From Sedimentisphaerales bacterium (GTDB taxonomy: Bacteria > Planctomycetota > Phycisphaerae > Sedimentisphaerales > Anaerobacaceae): DNA of 64,000 bases. The position numbers were made by a program, and so were the translations under genes. The notes under the pieces were generated by a model. It had not been told where the DNA came from, ran no database searches, and saw nothing but the letters and a program-made list of their open reading frames with translations. The stretch spans positions 2,496,001-2,560,000 of the forward strand of contig OY970194.1 of the NCBI GenBank assembly GCA_963708075.1. The letters run 5' to 3'. This document shows, piece after piece, positions 3,085 through 15,564 of the stretch (its first letter is position 1; the number at the start of each line of letters is the position of its first letter).

Positions 3085-6000
3085 TCACACCTGCACGGCT
3101 TGTCGAGGCACCATGAAATAGAGCCACTTCGCAAGGACATTGTCCCGCAGGATAGCGGCGGCGGCTTGGGCATATAGATTCACTTGGCCTCGATAGGTCT
3201 CCGCTCGTGCAGCGATGTCATTGCGGCCGACGCGGTCGGTTTTGAAATCAATGACGATCAGGCCCTGCGGCGTCTGCACAAGCACGTCGATCACACCCTG
3301 CACGACGATGAACTCGCCGGCCGCCCCGTCGGGTGTGCGATGAGCATACGTGAAGGGCCACTCGCGCAGGACACGGTTGGCCCTGTCAAGGACGACCGCA
3401 CCCAGGTCGCACTGAAAGAAGGCCAGGATCATCTCGGCCTTGACGCTCTCGGCCACTTCCACCGTCATGGCATGCTCGTGGACAAGCCGGCTCTTCGTCC
3501 GCTCGATCACATCCAGCGTGATTGGCTGCTTCAGGTCGAGACCGGCGATGACTGAGTGGGCCGCCGTGCCGGTCGATAGCGGATCGTACGGCTGAGTCGC
3601 CACGAGTCCCGGCGCCGCCAGGGCAATCGGCAGACGTGCGAGAGCCTGTGAGGAATCGCGCAGCGCGAATGTATCATCAGGATGCGTCAGCTTCGTCACC
3701 GAACTCTTGGCCGGCGAAGTGACCGCCCGGGCAAACGGATACCGCCAGCCCAAATGCTCCTTGAGCTCTGCAAGCAGCCTCTTTGCTTCAGCCGAAGGTT
3801 TTGGTTTGTTCTGTGCCGGTTTCGTGCCATTGGTCTTTCGGGCCCGCAGGTTCAGAACGAGATCGGAGAACGCCTTCAACTCCTCCCGGCCGTAGAGCCT
3901 GAACTCGAACAACCCATCGTCGCGGGCGCTGTCGCTCAGGTCGGTGCCGAACGCCTGGTGCAGGATGCGCTGATCGGACAAGCCGTACAGAATCCATTCG
4001 AGGCCGTTCTTGCACGCCGTCAGCAGCCAGTCGGGAATTCTCTTCTCGCCCAGCAGCAGGCCGGTGGCGAGATACTTGCCGCAATCGGTCCGCTTCTGCG
4101 ACGCCGTCAGAATCAGCCGGTCCTTGGCTCGCGTCGTGGCGACGTAAAGAATCCGCATCTCTTCCGCCAGGCCGGCCGCCTGCTTCTTCTCGCCAATCAC
4201 CTGGTGCGCCAGCGACTGCAGCTTCGTGTTCGATCGCGCGTCGACGATCTGCAGGCCCACGGCGTCATCCGTATCGACGACCATGTCCGCGTAGAGGTCC
4301 CGCCGATTGAATTCCGTCTCGAGCTCCGCGAGAAAGACGACGGGGAATTCGAGTCCCTTGCTCTTGTGCACGCTCAGGATGCGCACGGCGTTGCCCGCGG
4401 CGCTGCCGGGTTGCGCCGGCGCCCAGTCCTGCCCCGCCGCCTGGAGCCGCTCGATGAACTCGACGAACCGGGTCAGTGACGCGATTCCCGTATTGCTGGC
4501 AAAGCCTTCGAACTGGACGGCACGGTCGTGGAGTTTGAGGAGATTGGCCTTGCGGGCCTGGCCGTTGGGCAGGGCCGAGACGAACGCAATAAAGGAGCTT
4601 TCGCGATAGATTCGCCAGAGCAGGCCCGCCAGGTCGCCACGGCGGGCGAGGCTGCGCCACTGTTCCAGCGTCTTGAACGCCGTGTTCAGCTTGCCTCGCA
4701 GCGTCTCATCCGGCCCGCGATCGCGGTACCGAATGGCACAGGAATAGAAGTTCGACACATCAGGCTGGTCTTGTCCATGCAGGCGTATCCGGGCCAAATC
4801 GCTGTCGCTAATGGCGAAAAATGAGCCGCGAAGGACCGCGGCCAGCTCGATGTCCCGCTGGGGATTGTCGAGGACCTTGAGCAGGCACAGGACGTCGTTA
4901 ATCTCGGTGGCCTCGAAGTAGCCGGCGGTCGCGTCACAACTGACCGGGACGCCGTTCAACCGCAGAATCTCAACATAATCGTTCGCTTTCTTGGCCAGCG
5001 AGCGCATCAGGATAACGATGTCCCGATACTCGACGTTGCGCAGCGAGTCCGTCTCGCCGTCATGAATCTGGAACTCCGCCCGGCCCGTGTCCGCGCCGAC
5101 AATCTGCCGGATGCGCTGTGCGATCATCGCCGCCTGGCGGTGCCGCGCATGCACAAGACCGATATCTTCACCGGTTTTCGTGTCCACTTCGTCTTCACTC
5201 GCCGCTTCTGTGCCGCCGGCCTTCTCATCGAGGATGTGCAGTTCCACGAGAGGCTTGCTCCGGGTGGCAGCGTCAAGCGCAGCTTGGCGATGGTCTCCTG
5301 CGAATGCGCCATCGCCAAGGCCTTCGGCCTTGACGCTGCCACCCGTCTCAGGAGCTTGCGGCCCCTCCTGCGGCGCGGGCGCAGGCGGGCGGCCTCATCG
5401 TAGTCGATATTCGCCACGGCGGCTGTCATAATCCGGCCGAATACCTTGTTCACGAAGTCCAGAATGCCTTTGGCGGAGCGGAAGTTGTAGTTCAGGTCCA
5501 CGCGGAAGCCGCGGGCGATCTCCTTCGGATCGACGGAGGCCGGGGTCAGATGCTCGAGGAAAATGGTCGGCTCGGCCCCGCGCCAGGCGTAGATGCTCTG
5601 CTTGACGTCGCCGACGACAAAGACGTTGTCGCCTGAGCCCAGCGCGTCGAGGATCGCCTGCTGCACGGGGTTGATGTCCTGATACTCATCGACGAAGATG
5701 TACTTGTACCGCTTGCGCAGGGCCAGGGCCGTCTCGCTGGGCGCCAACTGTCCCGCAGCCGGGCTCTCGGTCAGCAACTGCAGAGCGAATCGTTCCAGAT
5801 CGGCGAAATCGAGACCGCTCAACGCGCGTTTTCGCTCCGCGTACAGCCGTGTGAATTTCTGCACCAGCTCGATCAGGACCTGCGTCTGCATGCTCGTGGA
5901 GCGACCAACGAGGTCCAGGTAGTCGGGATTGACCAGGGCCAGTCCGCTCAGACCTTTCACGGTCTTGCTCGCCCCATCAACCAGCCCACCCACTACATTG

Positions 6001-10500: not shown

Positions 10501-10590
10501 GGGTGGCAGCGTCAAGCGGCAGCTTGGCGATGGCGTTCTTGGGATGCGCCACCACCATCGCCAAGGCCTGCGGCCTTGACGCTGCCACCC
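10501..10590. repeat. Palindromic repeat family A, copy 3
   Basis: Same arms as copy 1, longer loop. Confidence 0.9.
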
Positions 10591-12336: not shown

Positions 12337-12484
12337 GTCCGATCCGGGAACGCCTTTCGCCTCCATGATATCCCGTGTGCCGGCAAGCACAACCAAATAT
12401 GCACGCCCGTTCACTGCGTTCTCGGGGCGGTGCGGCCGGCCGTCGACGCCGGATTCGGGCCGCGTTGAGGGCCTTTACCGGCGA

Positions 12485-13768
12485 TCAATACGAGCGGGCC
12501 ACGTCATGGTTGTGGTATGCGACCCGCGGCCGAGCCCGCAGCACCACCCCGGCGCCCGCGGCCGGCGTTGGACGTTGGCTTTGTTTCGCACGGCCGTCCC
12601 CGTTCGTAGTGACGCCGCAAGGCGTTTGGCGGGAAGTGTCAAGTGCAGGTCCACCGCTTGACACTTGACACTTCAAACTTGAAACTCCCCCCTGAATTGG
12701 CTTTGTTTCGCACGATGGTTTGTCCTCGGCCGCCGGCCCAGCCTCACGTGACACTTCACACTTCAAACTTGAGACTTCCCCCGATTGGCTTTGTTTCGCA
12801 CGATCCGTTTCACAGGGTAGGCAGTGCCCACCTTCCACCGTCACAGATTGGCTTTGTTTCGTGCAGTCGCTTACGACAGTATGGGTGGCAGCGTCAAGCG
12901 AAGCTTGGCGATGGTCTTCCTGAGGCTCCTCGAATTGGCTTTGTTTCGCGTAATCAGTCTCGCAGGGTGGGCTGTGCCCACTTTCCACCGTCACAGATTG
13001 GCTTTGTTTCGCACAGTCGCTTACGACAGTATGGGTGGCAGCGTCAAGCGAAGCTTGGCGATGGTCTTTCTGAGGCGCCTCAAATTGGCTTTGTTTCGCA
13101 GAATCGCTCGTCCCCTCCCGGGTGGCATCGTCAAGCGCAGGCTTGCCGATGGCGTCAGGATGCAGCCCAACACCATCGGCAAGCTCCGCAGGCTGCGCTT
13201 GCCGCTGCCACCCGTCACTGCCTGACACTTGACACTTCACACTTGAAACTTCTTCCCCTGCTTTTCCCTCCCGCCGGACCTGTCGCAGTTCCTTCATCGT
13301 CCGGTACAGGCTGCTCTCGATCCGCCGCTCATGCATCGATAGCCGGTCGAGGGTCCTTGTCTCGGCGAAGTCGCGTGCGACCGCCCGCCCGAAGGCCAAC
13401 TCGGCCCTGGCCGATGGATCGCGGTTCTCACGGCAGCACTTGACCCAGCCGTCGCCACGATCCGCCTCAAGGAGATAGTCGAGGGCCTCATCCTGCATGC
13501 GTTCGGCCCGTTTGAGCCGCCACCAGAGACCGACGATGCGTTCCGCCATCGCCTCTTCCTCCGGCCCATCCGGAGCCAGCTTCCGGAGCATCCGGCTGCG
13601 GTGCAGCTCGAATTCCTGCGAATCTTCGTTCCTGAGCACGGCCTGGCGGGCCCACAGGCCATGCTTGACGGCGTTCTGCGCCACGACGGCCTTGCCCTCT
13701 GTGGTGCGGGGTCCGGTGGATTTGGCGGCGTTACGACGGTTGGCGGCGACTCGTGCCTGGCTACCCAT
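12485..13768 (-). CDS. Hypothetical protein: ANRRNA..STGPRT.EGK..NA.KHGL N-terminal domain plus repetitive C-terminus
   Basis: GGAGG RBS before the ATG at 13768; ordered N-terminal ~165 aa followed by AKQSQ repeats. Confidence 0.75.
   Translation of the reverse strand: MGSQARVAANRRNAAKSTGPRTTEGKAVVAQNAVKHGLWARQAVLRNEDSQEFELHRSRMLRKLAPDGPEEEAMAERIVGLWWRLKRAERMQDEALDYLLEADRGDGWVKCCRENRDPSARAELAFGRAVARDFAETRTLDRLSMHERRIESSLYRTMKELRQVRREGKAGEEVSSVKCQVSGSDGWQRQAQPAELADGVGLHPDAIGKPALDDATREGTSDSAKQSQFEAPQKDHRQASLDAATHTVVSDCAKQSQSVTVESGHSPPCETDYAKQSQFEEPQEDHRQASLDAATHTVVSDCTKQSQSVTVEGGHCLPCETDRAKQSQSGEVSSLKCEVSREAGPAAEDKPSCETKPIQGGVSSLKCQVSSGGPALDTSRQTPCGVTTNGDGRAKQSQRPTPAAGAGVVLRARPRVAYHNHDVARSY
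12575..13100. repeat. Array of 7 copies of TTGGCTTTGTTTCG with variable spacers; includes a 150-bp tandem duplication
   Basis: Copies start at 12575, 12697, 12785, 12848, 12935, 12998, 13085; 12785-12934 is approximately duplicated at 12935-13084. Confidence 0.9.
13120..13213. repeat. Palindromic repeat family A, divergent copy 4 (inside CDS 12485..13768); half copies at 12883 and 13033
   Basis: GGGTGGCATCGTCAAGCGCAG...CTGCGCTTGCCGCTGCCACCC. Confidence 0.85.
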
Positions 13769-13787
13769 GGGAAACCTCCGGAATCTA

Positions 13788-13816
13788 TGATTTTTGATGT
13801 TTGATTTTTGATTTGA
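13788..13816. repeat. Short tandem heptamer repeat (TGATTTT-like)
   Basis: tgatttt tgatgtt tgatttt tgatttg. Confidence 0.8.
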
Positions 13817-14187
13817 ACATGGCCGCAGGCCTGCCGGGTGCGCCGGCGCCCGGTGAGACGTGGTCATCAGACCATATACTAAAGACGCTCCAGAGGGCGA
13901 AATGTTTCAGGAATGTTGGTTATATAGTGACATTATACGCAAGCCCTTGTGGCCCAGAGACTTACATCGCCTTATTTTTTGTGCCCAGGACAGAAGGCGG
14001 GCATGCGCCACCCTGCGACGGCGGCGACGAGTGCTCCGAGCGCACCCCTTGGCGCAGCGAATGGCGGTTCTCGTGGCGGTCGAGGGCATCAAAAGAAATG
14101 CATTCAACGCGATCAGAGCATCGCTCAGGGATTCGTCCCGAGTTTGAGTCTCTTGCCGCGGCTGGAGGACAACAACCGGCCGAGGAT

Positions 14188-14655: not shown

Positions 14656-15483
14656 GACTGTCTCCTTCAGGCCGAATCGGTATCCGTATTGCTGAGCCCA
14701 CATTACCCGGCGACCCAGCCGTGGGGAATCAGGATACGCCTCAATAGGCACGGGGGAATTTCCCATCATCATTCCTGTCGAGAATTTGCACAGGCGACGA
14801 TTTTTTGAGTCCGGCGACGAAATTTCCTTCGGCCCCACTTTGCAGGTTATCGGGGCTAAGTGGGGCAGACCATCGTACACAGGAGAACGCCCGCCACGTG
14901 AATCACTGTGGGCCGGGGCAGCTTGGGAAACGGGGGAAAATGGCTTCCCCGCGACAGCGATTTACCCACCCGATTGACGCGATTGCCCGTCGGCCGCGGG
15001 TCCCCAGAAAGGCTCAAGAGCCGTTGTCGCGCCTGCCGATTGGACATGTAGAACGATTAGAACGCAGCGTCAATGACATAAGGGGGTCCATTGACGAAGA
15101 CAAGCGTAGCAACTCATTGACATCTATATAGCCGATGGAACTTTCGCCCCTGGGCAGCGACTGGCGGGTATTTCAAACATATACCTAACTGGCATTGGGA
15201 ATATCCTCGCACAGGCTCCGCAGGGGCTTTTTCTTTGTTCCGATTGATTATGGAAGCAGTAGACATCCTCAAACAAGCAGCGGGGATGAGGCTGGAAGAC
15301 GAGGACGGCGGAGTCGAGAACCGGCGACGGCTTCTCGTGGGGCCGCTACGGCCCGCGGACCGTCAACAAGCGTTTCGGCGAGAAACGCATCTTCGCCTAT
15401 CAGATGCGCAAATCCTTCTGGCAGCGCCTGCTGGGAAAGTGACGCTCTCAGGCCTGATTCAAGATCGGGTAACAATCCTGGGC

Positions 15484-15564
15484 GGGTGGCAGCGTCAAGG
15501 TCGAAGGCCTTGGCGATTGGCGGATGGGCGAACCATCGCCAAGCTGCGCTTGACGCTGCCACCC
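15484..15564. repeat. Palindromic repeat family A, copy 5 (opposite orientation)
   Basis: GGGTGGCAGCGTCAAGG...GCTTGACGCTGCCACCC. Confidence 0.9.

Follow-up and report, generated by a model that had tools for sequence, protein, structure and literature searches.

The 64,000-nt window, the whole stretch of DNA that was analysed, contains one gene whose 3′ part is built around a short direct repeat. The locus raises the question of whether this repeat is a DNA site, an RNA element or a repeated peptide, and of how it is related to the gene that carries it. The initial annotation reported seven exact copies of a 14-mer, and these were recovered at 12575, 12697, 12785, 12848, 12935, 12998 and 13085. 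In shuffled windows the mean count is 0.01, and none of 100 shuffles reaches seven; the array is real and no artefact. As also described earlier, the copies do not share one frame: the 427-aa open reading frame (12485–13768, minus strand) reads KQSQ at six of them and ETKPI at one. With a weight matrix, the repeat was extended to a site of ∼18 bp, site A, with the 14-mer as its core. The features of the locus are as follows.

12429–13981, minus strand: whole element (leader, gene, array and 3′ end), ∼1.55 kb, between ybaK and arfB
13940–13966, minus strand: motif B, TAA..TT, palindrome-like and presumed IHF-like, at the left end of the leader
13776–13935, minus strand: leader, a conserved block common to gene-less arrays, with an A-rich heptamer tract (13789–13815) and GGAGG ahead of the start codon
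12485–13768, minus strand: gene, 427 aa, unnamed family; arm, helical core, array-encoded linker and C-terminal peptide
13631–13768, minus strand: N-terminal arm, residues 1–46, low model confidence; shares homology with part of the genes that immediately precede TerL and portal in some phages
13268–13630, minus strand: helical core, residues 47–167, a predicted long helical hairpin
13119–13214: full two-armed family-A palindrome
12573–13102, minus strand: array of seven A sites; spacer families in gene direction F2, F1, F2, F1, F17, F18
12777–13076: recent duplication of 150 bp, equal to two units (87 + 63 bp), 90% identical
13033–13066, plus strand: single family-A REP arm within unit F2
12883–12916, plus strand: single family-A REP arm within unit F2, duplicate copy
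12965–12981, plus strand: REP-like hairpin in unit F1; second copy at 12815–12832
12633–12776: heptamer tracts in units F17 and F18; third tract at 13216–13250
12606–12625, plus strand: REP-like hairpin with a GTAG tag; its end lies 15 nt ahead of the last A site
12485–12526, minus strand: C-terminal peptide RVAYHNHDVARSY, conserved; 7 of 8 intact copies read into it in frame
12429–12456, minus strand: right end, one arm of another palindromic repeat family

The finer features that had been noted in the array were all confirmed. The 150-bp duplication pairs 12777–12926 with 12927–13076, the two family-A half copies lie in the spacers, the full family-A palindrome adjoins the array at about 13119–13214, and both the heptamer tracts and the three short hairpins are present. 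The more general claim, that the spacers hold pieces of other repeat families, is likewise correct, as REP arms could be mapped in them. Motif B is absent between the A sites of this array and is located at the left end of the leader. Four more family-A palindromes are found in the window (3033, 5277–5329, 10516–10575 and 15499–15549).

The 1.55-kb gene-plus-array element is an insertion at this locus, because sister copies align over 12429–13981 and the arfB upstream regions of relatives contain neither gene nor site. Alignment of the sister copies starts near 13981, and the end at 12429 is common to five other loci. Among 21 same-genus relatives with an arfB match, two of which have <200 nt of upstream sequence, none has the gene or the site in the DNA covered upstream of arfB; in 10 of the 21, ybaK adjoins arfB at a distance of 100–514 nt. 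When the ends of nine copies were aligned, neither a terminal repeat nor a target duplication was apparent. No mobilising enzyme was seen either, and the protein has no transposase domain. These negative results count against the mobile reading proposed below. The genes flanking the array are arfB, ybaK and an M56 peptidase gene, and the promoter scan gave no sigma-70 match on the gene strand.

Like the locus in the window, many other places in the 7.5-Mb genome carry site A. The exact 14-mer is present in 157 copies, or 265 with up to one mismatch, and the weight matrix identified 297 sites, 285 of them in 42 clusters and 12 single. All 42 arrays are co-directional and none is mixed; their start-to-start A–A spacings are 33–375 bp. 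The N-terminal domain occurs at nine loci, all followed downstream by an array in the same direction, and 33 of the 42 arrays are gene-less. Two of the 42 clusters are one array split by a transposase-like ORF. They belong to the ninth gene copy (G000:C1:4778158-4780560), which has a frameshift near codon 80; arrays 28 and 29 are the two parts, and the 356-aa ORF between them is presumably an ISAs1-type transposase. The leader block was found in 11 of the 33 gene-less arrays and 5 of the 9 gene copies, compared to 0.17% of random windows, and some gene-less arrays start with a worn form of the first codons of the gene. Gene-less arrays are best read as derivatives that kept the leader. The initial annotation had held that a 14-mer scattered through the genome independently of the gene would speak against a gene-linked system; this is borne out in part, as most arrays are gene-less, but their sites are not scattered: these arrays are co-oriented and a third of them retain the leader. 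With a crude gene caller, the next gene has the same direction in 31 of the 42 arrays. The arrays show no replichore polarity (17 of 41 on the leading strand, p 0.35), and an origin-like skew jump at the arrays is weak (positive at 23 of 41; mean 0.022 versus 0.001, sd 0.05).

The spacers form a library that is common to the arrays. With single linkage at 70% global identity, which over-merged the largest family, 166 of 243 spacers group into 24 families common to different arrays; 412 of 29,403 real spacer pairs are above the cut-off, compared to 2 of 6,000 shuffled pairs. The earlier idea of captured pieces holds in so far as spacers match other loci, but the spacers are not unique captures. 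Spacer lengths range from 16 to >300 nt, and no polarised acquisition was seen among sister copies. Unit F2 has 21 copies in 11 arrays; 16 of them are exactly 70 nt, and they have 14 different neighbour pairs. This fixed length with varied neighbours indicated that units move in register with A. Such movement would be expected from any recombination sharing A, and it would be no proof of a site-specific enzyme.

Many of the shuffled units contain single arms of RAYT-associated REPs. Family A is itself a REP, flanking two of the 13 Y1 transposase matches in the genome, which also has four tyrosine integrase matches; two GTAG families likewise flank Y1 transposase genes. Family A is an unusually large REP family, with 573 arms genome-wide, 19 of them in arrays, and 18 of these 19 are same-facing. 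GTAG-tagged hairpins in arrays are on the strand opposite to A in 20 of 23 cases, compared to no strand bias (77 versus 87) for single REP-like elements between co-directional genes. In 27 of 58 cases, the REP ends 15 or 19 nt ahead of the next A; copies of one family have common ancestry, and the independent events behind these counts are about five or six.

The protein belongs to a family of 38,545 clusters at 50% identity in the profile search. Searches of Pfam and NCBIfam gave no match, and those of PDB sequences, PHROGs and the ESM Atlas gave no assignment; the best PHROGs result was one member of 25, with an E of 0.018, to a TerS family, and the ESM Atlas returned unnamed clusters and SEC-C clusters under 0.8. 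With the first model, Foldseek found no match at E ≤ 0.001. With the second model, VIA-align found only generic hairpins over residues 66–146 (Z up to 8.2), and the arm was barely covered; TerS was not among the fold matches of either model. No HTH was found in the protein. A catalytic tyrosine was considered and rejected: a conserved Tyr precedes the last helix, but the position is variable and holds His in this copy. Purifying selection acts on the protein, since dN/dS is 0.17–0.32 among the four closest copies; it reaches 0.68 over all 28 pairs. In 7 of the 8 intact gene copies the frame stays open through the last site, and the RVA(Y/W)xxH end is conserved in 7 of 8; any open frame is present in only 4 of 28 gene-less arrays. 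As the frame is kept open to the conserved C-terminal peptide, the array doubles as a variable linker, a protein-level constraint on the tail that was absent from the initial annotation. One family, f42 (L025–L029), consists of homologs that lack the arm, with one match per genome, four of the five being near fabZ/fabF-like genes; the genomes have background site counts, and f42 is possibly a domesticated, site-free form.

The gene and the site co-occur in several phyla. The gene is present in 17 of 18 same-genus genomes, with 0–23 profile matches per genome, and in 3 of the 12 genomes that represent other families. Two Acidobacteria and another planctomycete gave 33, 29 and 46 matches, and 3 of the 10 genomes searched gave none. 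Exact sites number 17–1138 in the 18 same-genus genomes, compared to 0–2 for the control, and 1–5 in same-order genomes without the gene. Site number follows the number of gene matches (Spearman 0.74), in genomes and paralogs that are kin and whose counts are not independent. G005, G007 and G013 have 582–1138 exact sites each, two to four times the count of this genome. The co-occurrence is imperfect, however, and the exceptions speak against our main reading: 19 sites but no gene were found in G011, the 108 sites of G006 are accompanied by a single gene fragment, G024 has the gene and no site, and in G190 all 8 gene loci have no site nearby. Tandem sites occur at 120 loci or more, which among the matches listed include Planctomycetota, Acidobacteriota, Verrucomicrobiota, Zixiibacteriota, Chthonomonadaceae and Thermomicrobiales; within the sequence covered around them, the gene is near only 7 of 90 loci.

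The position of the site relative to the gene is variable. In a Bryobacteraceae genome the site is reversed at 12 of 13 gene loci (14 reverse and 0 forward sites, 0.1 expected), and in an Acidobacteriaceae genome the orientation behind the gene is mixed (11 forward and 9 reverse). In three YqaJ-ERF operons the site is located just upstream of the gene. Both orientations, as inverted pairs, are present in 8 of 23 relatives' loci, a tally in which L018 was entered as empty in spite of three forward sites there. L178, L184 and L192, which look like unrelated tandem or low-complexity repeats, were left out of the motif-B, orientation and co-occurrence counts. Within the range of 74–104 bp that the tandem-site pattern allowed, 78 of 154 A–A spacings are 89–91 bp among the matches listed, mostly from related planctomycetes. 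The commonest unit is A-B-A, 90 bp in length, with the TAA..TTA motif B in the middle. Motif B has one mismatch to the IHF consensus in 12 of 78 units; this is a partial match, and we take the motif to be IHF-like on that basis. Helical phasing was rejected as a candidate property: half-sites peak at multiples of 10.5 bp, which tandem 10–11 nt duplications would give trivially, and the spacings 87, 34 and 63 in this genome are not consistently phased.

These data bear directly on the level at which A is conserved. The 8 intact genes contain 41 sites, of which 33 encode KQSQ and the other 8 are in another frame, and the KQSQ codons used are rare in this genome, with a joint frequency of 0.003 per site; a purely peptide-level repeat was rejected on both grounds. 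The two frames, the rare codons and the reversed copies in Acidobacteria agree with the earlier proposal of nucleotide-level conservation. Since the reversed copies are paralogs and in frame, part of their conservation could be peptide-level. The structured RNA that had been suggested was not supported: on 45 of 74 non-redundant 90-bp units, all from other genomes, the mean folding z was −0.19 and −0.03 on the two strands, with no consensus structure over 41 units and no excess pairing in motif B. The Rfam search gave no match. The partner gene is kept while the site switches side and strand, which fits duplex DNA better than RNA. Taken together, the downstream, upstream and reversed placements and the unstructured A-B-A unit favour a double-stranded DNA site over RNA or peptide, and judged from sequence comparison A is likely a site that its own protein would bind.

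The arm links this protein to phages. Among 17 matches of the protein family in viral contigs, 12 span only the arm, and among the 16 loci listed (L069 is outside this listing), 10 have a long ORF behind the arm-bearing phage gene. The long ORF is TerL in L070, L076 and phage MACPNOA1, with portal next; in L072 and L078 it has no PHROG match. The arm aligns to these TerS-position genes with an HHalign probability of 99.2, over 45 columns only, and the homology stops there. At the arm-sharing phage loci no strict A site was found, only scattered weak matches, so arm and site are separable, which weighs against our main reading. In other taxa, the integrase islands and the neighbouring phage recombination genes point to a phage or satellite origin. 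The gene is located within or beside islands with a tyrosine integrase at L353:8753-12206 and L355:2372-9499, the latter additionally carrying HTH_17 and AAA_25, and no capsid gene was seen in either as far as the contigs reach. It is near TerL in L065 and L109. The operon order YqaJ, ERF-DUF968, site A, gene was observed at L066:4401, L085:621 and L109:3014, and the L109 operon converges on a DUF5681-TerL pair.

We propose, with a probability of roughly 0.45, that the locus carries a multi-copy, mobile one-gene element, whose protein would bind duplex A through its basic N-terminal arm and whose arrays would grow and exchange units at A, likely by recombination or slippage. The proposal builds on what was observed directly, i.e. 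the site, its arrays, the shuffled unit library, the REP filler, the insertion, the gene–site link across phyla and the purifying selection. The ancestral unit may have been the 90-bp A-B-A, a bent protein–DNA complex with IHF/HU at B, and its spacing appears to have been relaxed in this genus, where units with REP arms 15–19 nt ahead of A would have been amplified and exchanged between loci. Since the protein has no invariant catalytic residue, movement to new loci would need an enzyme in trans; RAYT, a tyrosine integrase or a phage recombinase are candidates. A bolder form of the proposal, which we consider unlikely as a whole, is a new class of minimal selfish element in at least six bacterial phyla. 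Here a non-catalytic protein, with a DNA-binding arm of the terminase type, would assemble on phased 18-bp sites, which in the ancestral state were a pair spaced by 90 bp with an IHF/HU bend between them. Enzymes of phages or of the host would be recruited in trans; the sites of the element would have spread to >1,000 per genome, captured REP arms at a fixed distance and marked host DNA for packaging or recombination.

Several alternatives were weighed. An unrelated enzyme could act on the site in trans, in the way that a phage recombinase uses dRS3 in Neisseria and TnpA-REP uses REPs; the gene would then be a passenger of long standing that brings the site with it, and the arrays would be neutral mosaic DNA. 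We regard this as rather unlikely, although the 33 gene-less arrays, the genomes with many sites and a gene fragment at most, and the Y1 transposase and tyrosine integrase matches all agree with it. So do the one-way REP tags (20 versus 3) at their fixed distances from A, and TnpA-REP joins REP-bearing strands in vitro according to the available part of PMC3333891. However, a passenger gene would hardly explain why the site remains beside this gene family in several phyla despite changes of side and orientation, why site number tracks gene number, or why the protein is under purifying selection. It is less probable still that arrays are transcribed from the leader as a many-sited RNA, a sponge or a source of processed small RNAs for this or another RNA-binding protein. 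The model would be CcaF1-CcsR of Rhodobacter sphaeroides, where, in the part of PMC8034643 available, sRNAs are processed from 3′ UTR repeats behind a small-domain gene encoding a DUF1127 protein. The promoter-like leader, the uniform orientation in this genome, the A-rich single-stranded motif between hairpins and the same-directed next gene would suit such an RNA. Different from CcsR, the array here is part of the reading frame, Pfam has no match for the domain, the orientation to the gene is variable and the 90-bp units of other genomes have no conserved secondary structure; the reversed or upstream sites of other taxa, a spacing constant to within a base or two, and the empty Rfam search also disfavour RNA.

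A packaging function is slightly more doubtful again. The protein would be a free-standing small-terminase-like factor and A-B-A a packaging-start site, so that arrays would divert the packaging of a helper phage to host DNA. The 45-residue arm is that of genes directly before TerL and portal; the arm, helical hairpin and conserved C-terminal tail match the TerS layout (PMC9611059, available part), the site is within or beside the gene, and site-B-site recalls lambda cosB, in which IHF binds between two TerS sites (PMC4669245, available part). The integrase islands, capsid-free as far as seen, and the two loci near TerL would agree. However, beyond the arm the homology ends, no HTH was found, and TerS was not among the fold matches of models in which the arm has low confidence; R2 and R3 of cosB are inverted to each other, whereas A sites here are direct and present in tens of chromosomal copies. 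In this genome no TerL is beside the gene, whose neighbours are ybaK and arfB; the position directly upstream of TerL is held only by arm-sharing phage genes. The TerS-position phage loci have no A, the TerS position in L109 is already taken by the DUF5681 gene, and packaging by itself makes no new chromosomal loci. Finally, the leader, direct repeats and variable spacers that match other loci resemble a CRISPR-like or integron-like memory, which would have captured repeat-family pieces as guides or cassettes; the irregular spacer lengths and A–A spacings, the recurrence of spacers in families, the lack of polarised acquisition, a non-palindromic repeat, and flanking genes (arfB, ybaK, M56 peptidase) without cas or integrase make this very improbable.

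The element fails a defining feature of each known family to which it was compared. The closest in appearance are the Neisseria NIME arrays of dRS3 and RS elements. As described in the available part of PMC1797815, these are dispersed arrays of a short repeat with filler families of 20–200 bp, dynamic between genomes and inserted by other repeats and IS elements, and the repeat has been proposed as the place of recombination. The dRS3 repeat itself, 20 bp long and inverted, is reported from Neisseria alone, and its arrays occupy syntenic places. Here too one short repeat separates filler families in dispersed arrays (24 families, 166 of 243 spacers, 42 arrays). Different from dRS3, A is non-palindromic, polar and unrelated in sequence, is present in several phyla and is tied to one gene family, and the copy in the window is non-syntenic in relatives. 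The REP/BIME/REPIN systems with RAYT supply much of the filler, through family A and the two GTAG families; A itself, however, forms no hairpin and has no GTAG tag, the gene encodes no Y1 HUH enzyme by Pfam or NCBIfam, and the arrays contain single arms in one polarity instead of the alternating pairs of BIMEs. Compared to IS elements and MITEs, terminal inverted repeats and target duplications are lacking in the nine aligned copies, and the transposase domain is lacking as well.

A literature search on the peptide motifs, the DNA motif and planctomycete or Solibacter repeats, with most subscription journals and supplements outside its scope, found no description; within that coverage, the earlier remark that no function has been described for this arrangement stands. 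The present analysis adds the test for empty sites in relatives, the 90-bp unit, the changes in site orientation, the link to phage genes in the TerS position and the constraint on the reading frame. An unnamed family of about 38,500 clusters is thereby tied to a defined DNA site and becomes testable, and recurrent short peptides of the KQSQ, TKP and NKAN types in hypothetical proteins are explained as three frames of one DNA motif. Mosaic arrays of the NIME type also exist beyond Neisseria, and here they have a candidate protein partner. Should the site direct packaging or recombination, genomes of Planctomycetota and Acidobacteriota would be changing by a route that has gone unrecognised.

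Two further observations concern the phage genes and the neighbouring genes of the window. The arm-gene family directly before TerL and portal includes L067–L078 and KY697807.1:1638-2426 (L351) and is unannotated in MACPNOA1. In this TerS-position family the arm is followed by a four-cysteine motif, and phrog_26872 was matched in 4 of 4 scanned metagenomic members; from gene order and sequence, it is likely an unrecognised small terminase family. In many relatives (L041, L044–L046, L055 and L057), a conserved non-coding block of several hundred bases is located upstream of arfB or ybaK. Similar sequence is present at about 14870–15200 in the window, and it may be a structured RNA or a leader.
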